Below, in pieces: positions 4,846 through 58,562 of a DNA stretch of 64,000 nt. The stretch is from Octopus vulgaris (taxonomy: Eukaryota), in assembly GCA_951406725.2 (NCBI GenBank), contig OX597822.1, positions 13,082,001 through 13,146,000 of the forward strand, given 5' to 3'. The notes under the pieces were generated by a model. It saw only the letters and a program-made list of their open reading frames with translations, was not told where the DNA came from and did no database searches. Position numbers and translations under genes: made by a program. Positions within the stretch are counted from its first letter, which is position 1; each line of letters opens with the position of its first letter.

Positions 4846-4961
4846 TAAATTCAGAGTGAATACTTGATAAATGTAAGCACCTGTATATGCCAGCTATTGG
4901 CATAGGTGATAGGATATATGTATCAAATGAAGTAAATGAAAAACAGGACGCAAAGGATTTT

Positions 4962-5054
4962 GCGGTACATATGTTTCGGGCTTCATTGAACAACTTATTC
5001 TTATATCAATGCATAATTGATATAACAGATAGATCAAAAGCCTTCTTCAGCCGC
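4962..5054 (-). ncRNA. Minimal type-I hammerhead ribozyme motif
   Basis: Minus strand reads gcgg CTGAAGA aggctt...aagccc GAAA catatg TA ccgc. Confidence 0.8.
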
Positions 5055-5286
5055 GTACAATTACCACACTAAGGACATGTATCACATTATAACAGGTTTG
5101 AGAAATAGTTTGAGAAAAACCGAGTTTCATTAGGAAAGTAAATCCTCATAGGCGTACATGATATTGCTAGACTCCATAACCATGTACGCCTATAAGGATT
5201 TACTTTCATAATGAAACTCGGTTTTTCTCAAACTATTTCTCAAACATGTTATAATGTGATACATGCCCTTAGTGTGGTAATTGTAC

Positions 5287-5379
5287 GCGGCTGAAGAAGG
5301 CTTTTGATCTATCTGTTATATCAATTATGCATTGATATAAGAATAAGTTGTTCAATAAAGCCCGAAACATATGTACCGC
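5287..5379 (+). ncRNA. Minimal type-I hammerhead ribozyme motif
   Basis: gcgg CTGAAGA aggcttt...aaagccc GAAA catatg TA ccgc: stem I gcgg/ccgc, stem II ggcttt/aaagcc, palindromic stem III, GUA site. Confidence 0.8.
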
Positions 5380-5431
5380 AAAATCCTTTGCGTCCTGTTT
5401 TTCATTTACTTCATTTGATACACACACACAC

Positions 5432-6567: not shown

Positions 6568-7225
6568 TATAATTATAAATTAGGGTATCTACGAGATACC
6601 ACCATGCTGAAAATAGCAGTCGTGATCTGGCTCTAAAACCACATGTGAAGGTTATTTTTTACATGCTAGCCACTTGATAAACTCGTAATTTTATTTTAAA
6701 TTAACGATCTTATCCTTATTTGTATAAATTTAAATTTATTTCGTCACTGTATTTACTGCGGTGATATTTTAACTATATCTCACATGGAATTAAACGGCGG
6801 GCATTTTGAATTGGCCATGATGCATACGTGCATATATGTGTATGTATACGTTCATATATGTAAGTATTCGTATGTTGTATTTATATATATATATGTATTT
6901 ATGATTCTTTTCTGTGTGTATTCTACTGACGAGGCAAAGCATTCCAATATGCAAAGTCAAAAATCCGGGATCTAGAATTATCCAGTAATTTTTTACTAGC
7001 TTTATATTGTAGCTTTATATTGTCTCTTTGTTTTCTCTCTGTGTTTGCGATATGGCCAATTAAGGTGGTTTTAAAGTCAGATCATGACTGCTATTTTCAG
7101 CATGGTGGTATCTCGTAGATACCCTAATTTATAATTTTAATAATTATTACCTTTGACGGTTATTTTTTTCCATGCTGGCCACTTGATAAAATCGTTATTT
7201 TATTTTAAATTAACGATCTTATCGA
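6568..7225. mobile_element. Penelope-like pseudo-LTR module (inverted plus direct repeats) with degenerate hammerhead
   Basis: 6568-6642 inverted to about 7066-7135; about 6650-6714 directly repeated at about 7158-7223; attcta CTGACGA ggc...gtc aaaaa tccggga TC tagaat at 6920-6978. Confidence 0.65.
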
Positions 7226-22489: not shown

Positions 22490-23505
22490 TGCATAATTGT
22501 ATTTTTCTCTAATTCATTGTATAGGAAATAATATGATAATATTTGTTTTCAACTTTATTTTCTTGTAATAATTTTAAAACTGATAGGAACGGGAATAAAC
22601 ACGACGGAATTAATAAAATGTCTGCGACAAAATCACTTTAGAAAACAAAAGGAATTAAAAATACTAAGATATATATTTGCTTTGTACAAATATTTGCACA
22701 GAATAATATGAAGCTTCTATGCTATCGGCGCTTATCGATGGAAATATAAATAATAAAAATGAAACTGTATTTAGCGTTCTTGATTAATTAATGCACTTGT
22801 TTAACCTTAAATTTCAACCGTGGGTAGTATGGTGGTTGTAAATGAGTTCAATGTTTTCTTTTTCTTTTTTATTTTCTGTTTTTAGCGTCGCATAACCAAG
22901 CACCGAGGCTATGGATTTGATTGGGGTAACTATTATTGAAATTAACAGATGTTAATTTCGTCATAATCTTCACTGAAATTAAATGTTTCGTAGACGAAAA
23001 TAGTTATTTGCCGAAGTATCGAGGGAGACATGCCAGAGAGATTCGAAGGAAATGTGGAGGCGTATGCAGTGCATGAATGGGTGGTTGAAAAGCTCGTTGA
23101 GCAATCACCTGGTTTCAGGTTCCACCCCACTGTGTAACGTCTGGTGAAATGTATTCTGCTATAAATCCAGGCGACGAATGTCATGAGTACGGATTTCGTA
23201 CACGGAAACTGTTTTTAAATGTCTTGCTTCGAGAGTTGCATTCGGTACGATGTGTTTATCTATTTTAGTATTTTTGACTTTAAGAGTCCCTCCTAGCGTG
23301 TGGCATTTATGTATAGTAATGCCCTCTATTTAATATATATATATATATATTACACGCGGGTGGGAAGGGGCTGGTGACACAAACTTTCATTCACACTTTG
23401 AATTTGGTGGTACTGGTAACGGCTTTAGCTCGTTCTGATACTGAGTTGAGATGATGCCTTCTAGTATCTCGAAATTTAATATACAATTATTCATAATTGT
23501 AGTGT

Positions 23506-23596
23506 CCTACGCTGATGAGAAAAGAAATTGGGTAAGATATAATTATCCAATTCTTATGTTTTCCTAAAACTTAATTTCGAAACGTACGTCCGTAGG
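23506..23596 (+). ncRNA. Intact minimal type-I hammerhead ribozyme motif
   Basis: cctacg CTGATGA gaaa...tttc GAAA cgtacg TC cgtagg: 6-bp stem I, G-C base of stem II, palindromic stem III, GUC site (predicted cut after 23590). Confidence 0.88.
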
Positions 23597-23785
23597 TGAC
23601 TTAAAATTGTATGATAGATTGCCGTCATTTCATTCTCTCTTACCTGTCTGTGTTTGCCTTTCAAGTGGTGTGTTTTTACTGAGATCTCCCTTTTAGTAGA
23701 AAGACTAGCTATAACTCTTTGACTGCTATTTCTAAATTCGGTGTGTGGTGAGGCAATTCGTTGCTAAACCCTTAATTGCTTAGTA

Positions 23786-23819
<34 letters not shown>

Positions 23820-23820
<1 letters not shown>

Positions 23821-24380
23821 CCCCCAGCTATGGTCATCAAGCAGTGTAAAATTAATTGCAGAACTTGAGGCAATCCAACGAAGCTACATGAAGATAGCCT
23901 CTATGCAATATACAAGCTACAGGGAAAGACTCAAGAGATTGAGACTCTATTCCCCAGAGGGCGAAAAATATGCCATAATATACATTTGGAAAATCCTGGA
24001 GGAAGTTGTCCCAAACGTTGGCATTAAGAGTTATACTACCGCTAGAACAGGTCGCCACTACATAGTGCCAAAGATTCCAACTTCGCCATCAAAATATAGG
24101 ACAAGATATTGCAACAGCCTGAGTTTTAAAGGACCACAGCTCTTCAATATCCTCCCGAAGGACCTGAGAGACCTGCTTGGGGTGGATGTAGATGCCTTCA
24201 AAACGAAACTGAATCTCTTGCTGTCAAGAGTCCCAAATGAACCAACTTTACACTAGGAAATGCAAATGAGGGCAGCAGCGTAAACCTCACTTATGCACCG
24301 AATGTTAAGTTCTAACATGAATTAATGAAGTAAAAGTTACGTAGCAATACCAAATGGCGGTGACCCAGCATGGCCTCGAC
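23820..24380 (+). mobile_element. CR1/L2-group LINE 3' fragment, diverged subfamily of 1-982
   Basis: ORF 23888-24256 homologous to 86-892; same 3' tail caaatggcggtgacccagcatggcc. Confidence 0.88.
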
Positions 24381-24636
24381 TCATCCATGCAATAAGATAC
24401 GTTAATACATTCAATATACTATCATATAGGTTGCCCGTTAGCAATTAAGACCTAAGTTGATAAACACGGGTACCAATTAGTACCTGCATTGCAAGAAATA
24501 AGAGTAAAAAACAACCCGAACAGCCACAGAGGGTATAAGGTTAGTCGTTTTTGACTTTTATTTCTAGGAATGCCGGTCCTAATTTGGACCCTTCTTTTTA
24601 TATTTATAGAGAGAGATACACACACACACACATACA

Positions 24637-30157: not shown

Positions 30158-31236
30158 TTTTTTTTTTCTTCTAGTTTCAGCTCACGAGCTGTGGCCATGC
30201 TGGGGCACCGCCATTTGGAGTTGCTACATGGTTTTACTTCACGAATGCTTTTTAGCAACTGCCATTTGGTGCATGAGAGAGTTCGATGCAGCTGCCCTCA
30301 TCTGCACCTCCTGGCGTGAAGTTGGTTCATCTGGGACACCTGACAAGAAGAGATCCAGTTTCATTTTAAAGACATCTGCATCCACCCTATGCAGGTCTCT
30401 TAGGTTCTTCGGGAGGATATTGAAGAGCTGTGGGCCTCGGAAGCCCAGGCTATCACAGTATCTTGTCCTACATCTTGATGGCAAATTTGGAGTCCTAAGC
30501 ACCACGCAGTAGCGCCCAGTTCTGGCATTTGTGTAACTCCCGATGACAAAGTTTGGAACAAGTCCCTCCAGGATCTTCCAGATGTATATTATGGCATATC
30601 TTTCTCGCCTACGCTCCAAGTAATAGAGTTTTAATCTCTTGAGTCTTTCCCAGTAGCCCATACTCTGCACAGAGGCTATCTTCTTCGTGTAGCTACGTTG
30701 GATCGCCTCAAGTTATGTGATCAACTTGACACTGGATGGTGACCATAGCTGAGAGCAATAGTCAAAGTGGCTTAGGAAAAGTGTCCTCCAGAGGACCATC
30801 ATGGTTTCTTGTTCTCTTGTTCTAAAGGTTCTGAGAATCCATCCGGTAGTCGTCTACATTTCATTGCCAATTTAGCAACATGTACACGAAAGGTTGCGTC
30901 ATCACTCATGTAAATACCCAGGTCACGCACTGATTGTGCCTCTGGGATTGCAATTCCTCCGGGTCCAGTGTATTCATTGGGTATTGCATCTAGTTTTGCA
31001 TGCTGATAGTATAAAGCTTGAAACTTCTCAGCATTGAACTGCATGCTATTCTTTTCAGCCCACTTGTATATTTTGTCCAGCTCACATTGTAGGCGTTTAG
31101 TGTCCTCAGGGTTCTGTATTGCCTGTGAAACTTTTGTATCATCTGCATAAGTTGTGATCGTGGCTCTCTGCGTGGCTGAGGGCATGTCTGAGAGGGCCAT
31201 TATGAACAGTAGTGGTCCCAAAACAGTGCCCTGCGG

Positions 31237-32440: not shown

Positions 32441-32903
32441 ACTACCAGTTAATTTGCTCTCTGTTAAGTATTCAAAATATGTTATTCAACAGTCAACGTA
32501 TAATTCCAATCAAGTTCTTGTAAGATAAGAAGTTAGAGAAATATTCCGTTAGATAATTGTTTTGGATAATTTCTTAACCATATAGATTACTTTCGTAAAA
32601 ATATTAGCAAGGATTACTCCAAAGTAGCGATGGCATTACTTTGAATTCTATAACTATATATACAGCCTTATAAAACAAGCACATGTTGATCATACCAAGG
32701 GACATCATGTGAAGACCCTGAAGAGACTGCACTGTTTTACATTAGGGCAGCAATTACAACGATTATTCATCGGTGCAAATGAAACATGTGTCGGTCTTAA
32801 AAGTCGGTATATAATTATAGAATTAAAGATAATGCTATTGCTACTTCAGATTCATCCCCATATATCTATATATATATATGCATCTATATATATATGCATA
32901 TAT

Positions 32904-44049: not shown

Positions 44050-44695
44050 TGGGCATGAGAGGTATCGGTGTCCAAGAAGACCCAAAGGTATCAGGTAATT
44101 CTATGGTTAAGCTTCAGTTTCGATAATGATACGAATGAGGAATCCAACGTACGTCGTGTATTAGCATGTATATATATAAAAATTAATAGAATGAGATAAA
44201 AAATCTAAGTCTGTGAATAGTTTTCAGAACATTTAAAAAGAGGTCTTACAGCTGTTTCCGGGATATTTTATATAGCCCGTCATCAGAGATGGTGCGAGAA
44301 AATGCTTAAGTAATAGTTATTATACAGAAGATATGAAATACAGAGTGAAGTGGAGGAATGAAAATAGACGTGAGATACGTAAGGATATTTTATTTGCAGT
44401 TCCATTATCTATGCACAATGTATTTTCTGTGTGAGTTCTTATATATACATAATTTTGCTTTAATAATGGAACTGCAAATAAAATATCCTTACGTATCTCA
44501 CGTCTATTTTCATCCCTCCCCTTCACTCTGTATTTCATATTTTCTCAATAATAACTATTACATCAACATTTTCTCGCACTGTCTCCGATGAAGGGATATA
44601 TAAAATATGCCGGAAACAGCTGTAAGACATCTTTATAAATGTTCTGAAAACTATTAATAGCCTTCGATCTTGTACCTCATTCTGTTAATTTATAT
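44050..44695. mobile_element. Fold-back module with a hammerhead in each arm
   Basis: Arms about 44170-44409 / 44463-44695. Minus 44243-44290: tct CTGATGA cgggctatataaaatatcccg GAAA cagctg TA aga. Plus 44580-44629: tgtct CCGATGA ... GAAA cagctg TA agaca. Confidence 0.85.
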
Positions 44696-48749: not shown

Positions 48750-49594
48750 TTAATAAGGGTGAGAGAATTAGATACTAATAATAATGGTCACATAGTGACC
48801 ATTCTCTTATACTTATTTTTGTATAAATATTATAATATATTATAAAATATTATAATAATCCAGGTTTCTCGAGGCACTGGGCCACTTGGTGTGGAATAGA
48901 TATACTATTAAATTAGTATCTAATTCTCTCACCCTTATTAATTAATTATAATTATGCTACATTTATTTCTAAATGTAGTATTTGTTTCCGTGAAAGTTTG
49001 GCGCGCTGTTGGTAGGGGCATTTGAATTATAACGTCGGATGTAATCAATTGAACCACACGAGTATTTATCGTTATGGTAAAATCTGGCGTGTGATTGAGT
49101 GGATTTCATCCAGATAGTTTTGGCTGAGGAGCTACAAGTGGGTTTTTTGTAAGTAAAATTACATTTAATTCATTAATAGCGAAACAATTGTCCCAAAATA
49201 ATCTGTATTTTTGTTATTCTTTATTTGCCCTGTTCGTGTGAGCTAACAATCGTACTGACTTTCATGGGAAACATGTATTTTTGTGGTTGAAACCTTTTGC
49301 ATTTGCTAGTGCTAGAATGAGCCACATAGTGACCATTCTCTTATATTTATTTTTGTATAAATATTATAATATATTATAAAATATTATAATAATCCAGGTT
49401 TCTCGAGGCACTGGGCCACTTGGTGTGGAATAGATATACTATTAAATTAGTATCTAATTCTCTCACCCTTATTAATTAATTATAATTATGCTACATTTAT
49501 TTCTAAATGTAGTATTTGTTTCCGTGAAAGTTTGGCGCGCTGTTGGTAGGGGCATTTGAATTATAACGTCGGATGTAATCAATTGAACCACACG
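48741..49594. mobile_element. Penelope-like pseudo-LTR: 272-bp direct repeat plus short inverted 5' segment, between (TA)n tracts
   Basis: 48789-49060 nearly identical to 49323-49594; 48741-48779 is the reverse complement of about 48913-48950. Confidence 0.75.
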
Positions 49595-49601
49595 TGTATT
49601 T

Positions 49602-49675
<74 letters not shown>

Positions 49676-50885: not shown

Positions 50886-52625
50886 GTCATTTACTTTTAA
50901 TCTGCATGTTTGATGCAATCATTTGCCGGGGCACACCCAGCGCCCTAGGGCAAGTGAAGGTTAAGAGTTATTGAAATCTAGCTGAAAGCTTGGGGAGGGG
51001 AAGTAGAGAAATATCTCCATGTAATACAACACAAACATTTACATTGATAGGGTTTTTCTAAGGATGTGGGCAGTACTTGTTAGCACAATCTTTTGGATTT
51101 CCTATCCCTTTTTTATCATACCTAGGGTACCTACAATAACAGGAACAGTTTTGTTTTAAGATTCCACATCTTTTGTATTTCGATTTCCAGGTCCTTATAT
51201 TTACTAAGTTTGTCAAATTCCTTTACAGATATATTTTTATCAGTGAGGACGCTTACCTCTATTAGTCTGCAGGTATTTTCTTCCCTGTCTTTAACAATTA
51301 TGTCTGGTCGATTAGCCTTGATCGTTCTGTCAGTGTTGACTGGAAAATCCCAGAGGATGGTGACATTTTTACCTTCAACAACTAACTGAGGATGGTGTTC
51401 ATACCAGTTAGCAGGAGTGCCGAATTTGTAGTGTTTACATATTTTCCAATATCCTACCCTATCGTGGCGATTTTTGTATTCGTTTGGTGTCAGCACAGGA
51501 CATCCCGAAACGAGATGGTCTATTGTTTCGTCAAATGTGTCGCAGAATCTGCATTTAGGGTCAGTACCGTTTCGGAGGACGTTAGCCTGGTAAATTCTGG
51601 TAAACAAGCTTTGATCTTGTGCTGCCAGTATGAAGCCTTCAGTCTCTGCTTTCAATCCTGAACTCTTCAGCCACTGATGGGTTGTTGCTTGGTCTACATC
51701 AGCATTTTGGCTTCGGAGAATATATTGTCCATGCAGGGGTTTCTGGCTCCACCGCCTCTCAATTTGATTCTGCCCGTTCTTTTTTGCAGTATGCTTGATT
51801 CGCTTTGCTTGCTTTGTAACGGTGGTTTCCGGCTCTTCATCTGATTCAAGGTTAATGTCTAGTTCCCTTTCGAACTTATAAGCTTCCTTGACAATAGAAT
51901 GCATCTTTTTTCCTCTTTCGTGTTTGCACACAAGTCGCAGCATCCAGTCCTTTGTACTAGATAGGTACCTGTTCATTCTTACAGTGGAGGTCTTATAGCA
52001 TCATTCCTCTCCCCCTGCTGCTTCTAGGTAGGTACAGGCGGTCTACATCTGCCTTAGGGTGGTGCATGTTCTTGGATGTCAGCAATTTTCTTGTCTTTCT
52101 GTCCAAGCGTTGGAGTTCCGTAAGGTTCCAGTTAATGACGTTAAAACTGTACTGGACTACTGGAAGTGCCAGAGTGTTAATGGCCTCAATGCAATTTTTG
52201 GAGTTGCGTTCAGTCTTCAGTACAAGCCTTATTCTCCTATAGTATTCCTTTCTTATTTTTTTCCTTCATAGTAGCATGATGTATACCATCTCCTTCGTTG
52301 ATTCCTAGGTATTTGTAACTTTCTTGTGGGTCAAGTTCCTTGATGGTAGTGTCAATATCTAATTTAACAGAATCTGTTTGCCTGAGCTTGCTTCTTACAA
52401 AAGTTGCTTTAGCACATTTATCAAGCCAAAATCCATTCCGATATCATTGCTAAACTCTTTAACAGTTGTTAGAAGCGACTTCTAGCTCTTGGTCATTCCT
52501 GGCAAACAGCTTTAGGTCGTCCAGAAAAGGTGGTTTATTGACTTACTAAAAACCATATTTGGTACTATCCAATTCGTTTGAGAGTGGGATCAGTGCCATG
52601 CAAAAAAGTAATAGAGAGAGGGAGT

Positions 52626-57501: not shown

Positions 57502-57576
<75 letters not shown>

Positions 57577-58562
57577 TATATATATCTTATAAGCAAGGGC
57601 TAAAGAAGATTATTCTAAAGCCAATATACTGATATTCCACATTTAATCCGCTTGCTACAGAAAATTGAACTGAAATTCGGGCAACTAATCATTGGAACGT
57701 CTAAATTTCGTTATTTCAATATTGAATCAATTTCGGAATTAACCACATAAGGGTTCGTTCTTCATCAGTTGAACTTACGAGAGAATATAATTAGGGTACT
57801 TACATGCGCCTATTGGAACAGCCGAAGCGAATAACACAAATACATCTAAGTAACTCAACTATATCTAAAAATAAAAATTCTTATGTCAGTCTCAGGACAA
57901 CATGTTGACTTTCCGCCGATACATATTGTAGTGGTTACAAGTCCCCTGTAGCAAGCAGTAATGAGTTTACTACTATTAAAAAAGGTTTAAGTTTTTTTCT
58001 TTAGAGAAAAGTATTCCATCAGGAAGTGTGGCAGTATATTAAAAGAACCTTTACGCTTCTTTTAATATACTAACTGATGAAGAACGAACCCTTATGTGGT
58101 AAATTCCGAAATTGATTCAATATTGAAATAACGAAATTTAGACGTTCCAATGGTTAGTTGCCCGAATTTCAGTTCAATTTTCTGTAGCAAGCGGATTAAA
58201 TGTGGAATATCAGTATATTGGCTTTAGAATAATCTTCTTTAGCCCTTGCTTATAAGATATTTATAATTTAATATACTGCTACACTTCCTGATGGAATTCT
58301 TTTCTGTAGGGAAAAAAACTTCATCCTTTTTTAATAGTATATATATATATGTATGTGTGTGTATGTTTGTATGTCTGTGTTTGTCCCCCCTCAACATCGC
58401 TTGACAAACAAGGCTAGTGCGTTTACGTCCTCGTGACTTAGCGGTTCGCCTAAAGAGAATGATAGAATAAGTATTGAGCTTACAATAAGATCTGGGGTTG
58501 ATTTGCTCGACTACAGGCGGTGCTCCAGCATGGCCACAGTTACATGACTGAAACAAGTAAAG
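57339..58562 (+). mobile_element. SINE family A split by a fold-back module in its central (TA)n
   Basis: Head 57339-57505, tail about 58370-58562. Confidence 0.8.
57582..58340. mobile_element. Fold-back module with hammerhead in each arm
   Basis: 57582-57770 inverted to 58072-58260; 57970-58043 inverted to 58267-58340. Minus 57715-57773: ttcaa CTGATGA agaacgaacc...ggttaattcc GAAA ttgattcaa TA ttgaa. Confidence 0.85.

Follow-up and report, generated by a model that had tools for sequence, protein, structure and literature searches.

The window analysed in this study, by which we mean the whole 64,000-nt stretch of Octopus vulgaris DNA, carries a genuine type I hammerhead motif at 23506-23596, in which the core CUGANGA...GAAA...NUH is found together with stems I to III (Table 1). 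An earlier note on this DNA had described complete core bases, a 6-bp stem I, a GUC site, a palindromic stem III and an expanded stem II, and all of these were confirmed. Every core base is present in the sequence and was recovered in a descriptor scan, stem I pairs at six of six positions and can be extended across a 2x2 internal loop with 23501-23503, and the GUC cleavage triplet ends at C23590, which corresponds to C17. Stem III is an 8-nt palindrome (23582-23589), a form that calls for cleavage as a dimer. Stem II is a 60-nt domain with a 4-bp base made of GAAA (23519-23522) and TTTC (23575-23578), including the pair G10.1-C11.1, which encloses 52 nt (23523-23574). A strict hammerhead descriptor, requiring 6 bp in stem I, 4 bp in stem II and 2 bp in stem III, matched the window twice (23512, 49124) and had no match in any of 60 local shuffles. 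Rfam gave no hammerhead match for the whole window at the gathering score, nor for 23300-23900 at E ≤ 10, probably because of the 60-nt stem II. The canonical contact between loops 1 and 2 was not found in the motif, as the 4-bp base is followed by a 2x2 internal loop instead of a terminal loop 2.

Table 1. Features of the hammerhead and of the surrounding insertion (positions refer to the window)
Feature	Position	Strand	Remarks
Hammerhead stem I, 5′ strand	23506-23511	+	pairs 6/6 with 23591-23596
Catalytic core CUGAUGA (C3-A9), DNA CTGATGA	23512-23518	+	read from sequence, descriptor scan
Stem II domain, 60 nt	23519-23578	+	base of 4 bp, then a 2x2 internal loop; modelled for the family as a long irregular rod
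Core GAAA (23579-23582), stem III, GUC triplet	23579-23590	+	
Stem I, 3′ strand	23591-23596	+	first bases past predicted cut
5′-truncated single 583-nt retrozyme insertion	23351-23788	+	blastn vs tandem array L024
Left TA microsatellite (target)	23333-23350	.	
Right TA microsatellite (target)	23789-23818	.	
Conserved 3′ signal region	23723-23788	+	CTGCTATTTC ... GGTG hairpin ... ACCCT-AATT

What the earlier note had missed is that the motif belongs to a mobile 583-nt repeat. In the tandem array L024 the cut sites are spaced 591, 583 and 582 nt apart, from which a unit of 583 nt follows. Counted from the cleavage site, the insertion in the window comprises unit positions 344-583 followed by 1-198, and no second copy of the family was found within the window, and the insertion is without a tandem neighbour. 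An intact-core pattern with a stem II of 40-68 nt matched the 2.8-Gb genome 453 times, compared to one match for the reversed control, while a 361-nt query returned 2351 genome candidates, of which the 40 that were scored show 97-99% identity over their full matches. The copies are scattered over many contigs. The unit has a GC content of 36% and is non-coding, its longest ATG frame having 38 aa even when read as a circle; an ORF with reverse transcriptase (RT) and GIY-YIG endonuclease, as expected of an autonomous Penelope-like element, was not found in the unit, nor were terminal inverted repeats. As a predicted circle it is highly self-paired (−149.7 kcal/mol, z −4.9, 0 of 40 shuffles as low). 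At least two consecutive units, each with a complete type I hammerhead, occur in L024 and in other arrays of the family, whereas the window copy is a truncated monomer, and no LTR-like layout was found across 51 loci. The 583-nt repeat is a new family of animal non-LTR retrozymes with an unusually long stem II. Among the papers listed on octopus hammerhead ribozymes, none concerns this family by title, and the main text of a 2026 octopus repeat annotation mentions neither hammerhead nor ribozyme nor retrozyme. Contigs of four presumed-RNA runs carry variants of the family; such contigs are uninformative on ends, strand and circles.

The structure of stem II was analysed with an alignment (A1) of 25 distinct copies chosen to span subfamilies. 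A single long rod leaves 93.7% of the alignment cells paired, with three pairs showing two-sided changes in 13 such cells; among 500 shuffles none reached these values for cells and score, while the pair count was matched in 51. For a ttgggtaa/ttatccaa-type hairpin, 93.8% of the helix is paired, with one two-sided pair. The covariation events are few because the 25 copies are related and come from a few subfamilies, and rod and hairpin are only weakly separated by covariation alone; folding separates them clearly, in favour of the rod. In four of four other copies tested the isolated stem II domain folds as a rod with base-pair probabilities of 0.66-1.0. Stem II of the family is therefore best modelled as a single long rod, based on compensatory changes and minimum-energy folds. 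The earlier note had placed the ttgggtaa/ttatccaa pairing inside stem II. The hairpin is indeed present and is the minimum-energy fold of the window copy, but it competes with stem II rather than lying inside it, and as the family structure it was rejected as a competing fold that is favoured by the window copy's own substitutions.

When whole motifs were folded, stem I and the rod formed, but the core paired with the cut-site strand, resulting in an inactive state, and the RNAalifold consensus on A1 is likewise this inactive fold and not the hammerhead. According to the folding, five other copies pay about 3.7-4.5 kcal/mol to form the hammerhead as a monomer. For a double hammerhead joined by the palindrome, the penalty relative to a pair of free monomers is 0-1.8 kcal/mol in four other copies. 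From the cost of the monomer and the nearly free double form, cleavage in the family is predicted to depend on a dimer. Small Penelope hammerheads are said, with reference to Lunse et al. 2017, to cleave as dimers. Such a dependence has also been described for type I motifs of animals whose helix III is palindromic, as far as the available text of PMC4209133 goes. The 2x2 internal loops, situated after 4 bp in stem II and after 6 bp in stem I, may contact each other; the same layout is found in the 49124 motif of an unrelated family. Core and palindrome are constant across subfamilies while stem II varies in compensating pairs. One subfamily (L032, L036, L044, L057) has A at 10.1, giving an A-C mismatch at the base of stem II, yet comprises many young tandem copies.

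For the insertion footprint, 60 loci were fetched, 30 by similarity, which biases them to ends near +198, and 30 by hammerhead pattern; after removal of 9 overlapping duplicates, 51 loci were used. Their 5′ ends are scattered. For the 3′ ends there are two sites downstream of the cut, A at +192 to +202 and B at +292 to +306, and almost all of these ends abut TA runs. Among the 35 single-arm loci, 30 end at A and 4 at B, and one runs off the locus; the 18 single-arm loci picked by pattern, and thereby free of the end bias, gave 16 A and 2 B. Two arms joined back-to-back at their 5′ ends were found in 16 of the 51 loci. Where both ends of such loci are standard (n = 10), nine are A/B, one is A/A and none is B/B (P ~0.01), and six of the 16 have one non-standard end. 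An arm exceeds one unit in 27 of the 51 loci. The conserved 3′ signal region of the window copy ends at site A and is common to the sister families. With regard to the downstream ctgctatttcta, for which the earlier note had seen a resemblance to modules at 6.6-7.1 kb and 31.4-31.7 kb, its presence was verified at 23723 and in the 6.9-kb module, while the likeness at 31.4-31.7 kb is by eye only. A target-site duplication, if any, would be masked by the flanking TA runs.

The insertion marks expected of Penelope-mobilised sequences were found in the family, namely 5′ truncation, partial tandems, an inverted 5′-truncated arm, fixed alternative 3′ ends and a microsatellite target. Because of this anatomy (fixed twin 3′ ends at TA repeats, variable 5′ ends, back-to-back arms), the insertions were likely made by a Penelope-like enzyme. 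Young Penelope-like families with intact RT and GIY-YIG frames of 781-784 aa are abundant in the genome; the frames carry a C-x4-C-x2-C linker, a type ascribed to Neptune elements in the accessible part of PMC8557442. The 3′ ends of these families lie in TA runs, and some families carry a hammerhead with a U3-A8 core variant. Among the loci inspected, L113:3930-3970, L205, L207 and L208 represent autonomous two-ORF Penelope-like families with U3-A8 hammerheads near TA-abutting 3′ ends. The search for an autonomous partner covered a part of the genome's Penelope families. Terminal-repeat homology to the 583-nt unit was not significant in 31 loci of one Penelope family and six longer stretches, and none was detected in 30 GIY-YIG loci, where two matches proved to be separate sister insertions. 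A Penelope RT adjoining a copy in L049 was rejected as parent, as its family and a 72%-identical family are without terminal-repeat homology; the adjacency is therefore put down to the common TA target. In L224, the sister element that follows a GIY-YIG frame does not belong to the element with that frame either, being a separate insertion in its TA tail. At L049:1305-1629 and in L224, the TA runs that terminate autonomous Penelope copies contain retrozyme-like elements, which shows a common target.

In the window, a Pfam analysis of 30 of the 64 ORFs detected two LINE-type RT fragments only and no Penelope, and tblastn with two Penelope proteins gave no match. LINE-type RT fragments lie at 1-962, 23816-24384, 30169-31221 and 51131-51976, the second of which begins directly past the TA run 3′ of the retrozyme copy.

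The copies also contain information on the template. C17 is kept in 445 matches that read through the cut site, versus three junctions exactly at +1. The seven matches without C comprise these three junctions, one substitution, two arms of one locus with an 8-nt deletion and one likely chance match, and at a control position nine such matches were found, six of them substitutions and three likely chance, with no junction. The excess of 5′ ends falling on the cut site, 3 compared to 0 at the control position, is made up of counts too small for a conclusion, from a test that is blind to junctions preceded by C, and the Poisson P ranges from 0.004 to 0.08 depending on the assumed rate. Copies differ by a mean of 2.7 letters within a locus (21 pairs) compared to 13.4 between loci, and in 5 of 16 multi-copy loci rare variants are common to the copies. 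Read-through and the likeness within loci indicate that each insertion derives from one continuous template. This template was likely a circle or an uncut multimer, two forms that look alike in DNA alone. At L182/L183 (G000:C2:75407477-75407934) both arms are without the same 8 nt spanning stem III and the cut site, hence a ribozyme-dead template was copied there; the deletion could stem from a trimmed and religated circle or from a slip between CGTA repeats.

Taken together, we consider it probable that 23351-23788 is a solo, 5′-truncated retrozyme, member of a family whose units are likely cut by the ribozyme, circularised and copied by a Penelope enzyme into TA runs from two sites, and that its own ribozyme is misfolded, as predicted. 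Tandem loci would be transcribed, a lone hammerhead in the RNA would adopt the inactive pairing of core and cut site, and neighbouring units are predicted to pair via the 8-nt palindrome and to cut. The unit RNAs would then be ligated into circles by a host ligase, as in published retrozymes. As the DNA footprint shows, cDNA synthesis, presumably by the Penelope enzyme, starts about 196 or about 300 nt past the cut site where a TA run is broken. It crosses the cut site, in many cases continues beyond one unit, and stops at variable points. Both DNA ends can prime, one per site, which gives back-to-back arms, and the window copy would be a single arm primed at the first site.

In an alternative that we regard as unlikely, a non-autonomous Penelope derivative moves as an uncut linear multimer without any role of circles, its hammerhead being a relic that is weak or helped by protein. 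Uncut RNA would explain the read-through of 445 versus 3 equally well, the likeness within loci would likewise be expected, and at L182/L183 a dead-ribozyme template was in fact copied. Uncut RNA was also the chief substrate in vitro in the accessible text of PMC11167929, and one of nine Xenopus dimers cleaved according to that of 10.64898/2026.07.22.740005. However, an irrelevant hammerhead is difficult to reconcile with a core and palindrome fixed across subfamilies next to a compensating stem II, and with several unrelated families keeping the same design. Furthermore, new multi-unit arrays arise despite 5′ truncation of every insertion, which a circle explains more simply, and the junctions at +1, three versus none at the control position, are a weak hint of cut RNA.

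The retrozyme reading includes a defect of the window copy itself. Compared to 35 other copies it has five private substitutions, three of them inside stem II (23527, 23548, 23559), a clustering with P ~0.02 calculated post hoc. The 23527 variant occurs at three genome places, the other two of which are without the changes at 23548 and 23559. The predicted stem II base probability is 0.02 in the window copy compared to about 0.66-1.0 in other copies, and folding gave a cost of 8 kcal/mol for the monomeric hammerhead and of +9.2 kcal/mol for the double form. Due to the three stem II substitutions and the absence of a tandem neighbour, the window copy is predicted to be a misfolded and poor ribozyme. 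Run contigs of the organism codes A, C, D and E contain the family and have the common alleles at 23527, 23548 and 23559; the insertion is not datable thereby.

That the copy is nevertheless an active ribozyme, be it as part of a host transcript reading through it or by acting in trans with RNA of the family, appears quite unlikely. Its core, stem I and palindrome are intact, and stem III could in principle pair in trans with RNA of the family, but the three substitutions are absent from 35 of 35 compared copies, and both the stem II probability and the double-form penalty speak against it, as does the solitary position. The earlier note had ranked this motif first among the window's candidates for ribozyme activity, which is not supported in view of the stem II base probability of 0.96-1.0 at 49124 and of the double-hammerhead penalty of 0-1.8 kcal/mol in four other copies. 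The hammerhead at 49124 is predicted to be the better candidate for activity.

It is highly improbable that the repeat is a satellite, or otherwise spread at the DNA level by recombination or a DNA transposon, with an incidental hammerhead. Tandem arrays such as L024 exist, but the copies are dispersed and 5′-truncated, their fixed 3′ ends abut TA runs, arms lie back-to-back, and the unit is without terminal inverted repeats.

As a retrozyme, the family resembles metazoan non-LTR retrozymes, as described in the available parts of PMC7229834 and 10.64898/2026.07.22.740005, in that its tandem units are non-coding and low in GC, and each contains one type I hammerhead whose helix III is short and palindromic. 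Further common features are monomers, dimers and multimers in dispersed positions, a predicted circle that is strongly self-paired, and co-existing Penelope-like elements. The unit of 583 nt exceeds the 150-450 nt given in PMC7229834 and lies inside the 51-972 range of 10.64898/2026.07.22.740005. In contrast to the 60-nt rod found here, stem II of the metazoan retrozymes is a 4-bp helix with a small loop (same sources), and neither fixed twin 3′ ends nor TA targeting nor back-to-back arms are among the retrozyme features in the available text of either source. Terminal-repeat homology to Penelope was reported for 24 of 57 Xenopus families (10.64898/2026.07.22.740005, available text), whereas none was found here in the sampled families. 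With the hammerheads of Penelope-like elements, as far as covered in the available text of PMC4209133, the family has in common the type I form, a palindromic stem III, a predicted need for a dimer, G10.1-C11.1 and copies near each other on opposite strands. In the same text, helix II has 6-8 bp and an extra base follows A9, while here stem II has 60 nt, no extra base is present and no ORF is attached.

Similarity to EN+ Penelope-like elements with a Neptune-type linker (PMC8557442 and PMC11167929, accessible parts) extends to 5′ truncation, partial tandems, an inverted 5′-truncated copy by the 5′ end, TA bias and two internal RT starts; partial tandems, inverted 5′-truncated copies and TA bias are reported in PMC8557442, and two internal RT start sites in vitro, 30-40 nt apart, for one Penelope element in PMC11167929. 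Unlike these elements, the family encodes no protein, and its start sites are about 100 nt apart and split between arms, a difference in spacing that counts against the model. In vitro, a hammerhead mutant left Penelope insertion unimpaired, uncut RNA was the main substrate, and the transposition steps beyond first-strand synthesis are left open (PMC11167929, accessible part).

Re-entry of retrozymes into the genome via Penelope enzymes and a circular template has been proposed, not shown, and a search of the literature apart from supplements found no paper that combines retrozymes with twin priming. A young family with start sites split between two arms provides exact RNA positions and a defined template for in vitro work. 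Furthermore, standard hammerhead descriptors and Rfam overlook abundant families due to the long stem II. The window copy, a decayed insertion, matters little alone. A more far-reaching reading, possible but doubtful, is that at least five retrozyme families with thousands of copies have replaced loop 2 by the rod, that their 2x2 loops in stems I and II dock and that activity arises in the palindrome-paired form only. A Penelope dimer would use two different fixed sites of one circle, one for priming at each end of the cut TA run, and the copies would thereby record the second-strand step of Penelope integration.

Several related or similar motifs were detected in the window and the genome. 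The region 6921-7140 holds a sister retrozyme-like element with the same 3′ signal and a decayed hammerhead in which G12 is lost. Its family, with 432 intact-pattern genome matches compared to none for the control, likewise has two end sites and carries this 3′ signal. The 3′ region of the 583-nt unit recurs, at about 70%, in a sister family whose copies are short (2558 candidates). To a further family with long stem II belong most of 3592 matches, compared to 26 for the control, and there two end sites are found, too. The hammerhead at 49117-49199 is intact and belongs to another family, with a CTGAGGA core, a 50-nt stem II, the palindrome CAATTG and a 7-bp stem I; it lies inside a partial tandem with a period of 534 nt (48789-49603), and relatives are found in L016, L051 and L052. 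At 32712-32798, a hammerhead-like sequence with long stem II has a changed base pair 11.1, and its stem II is predicted not to form. The region 4940-5420 is a back-to-back two-arm insertion with one long-stem-II hammerhead per arm (cores at 5050 on the minus and 5291 on the plus strand, GUA triplet), and further back-to-back inverted pairs with pieces of hammerhead-like cores are located at 44140-44640 and 57566-58275.
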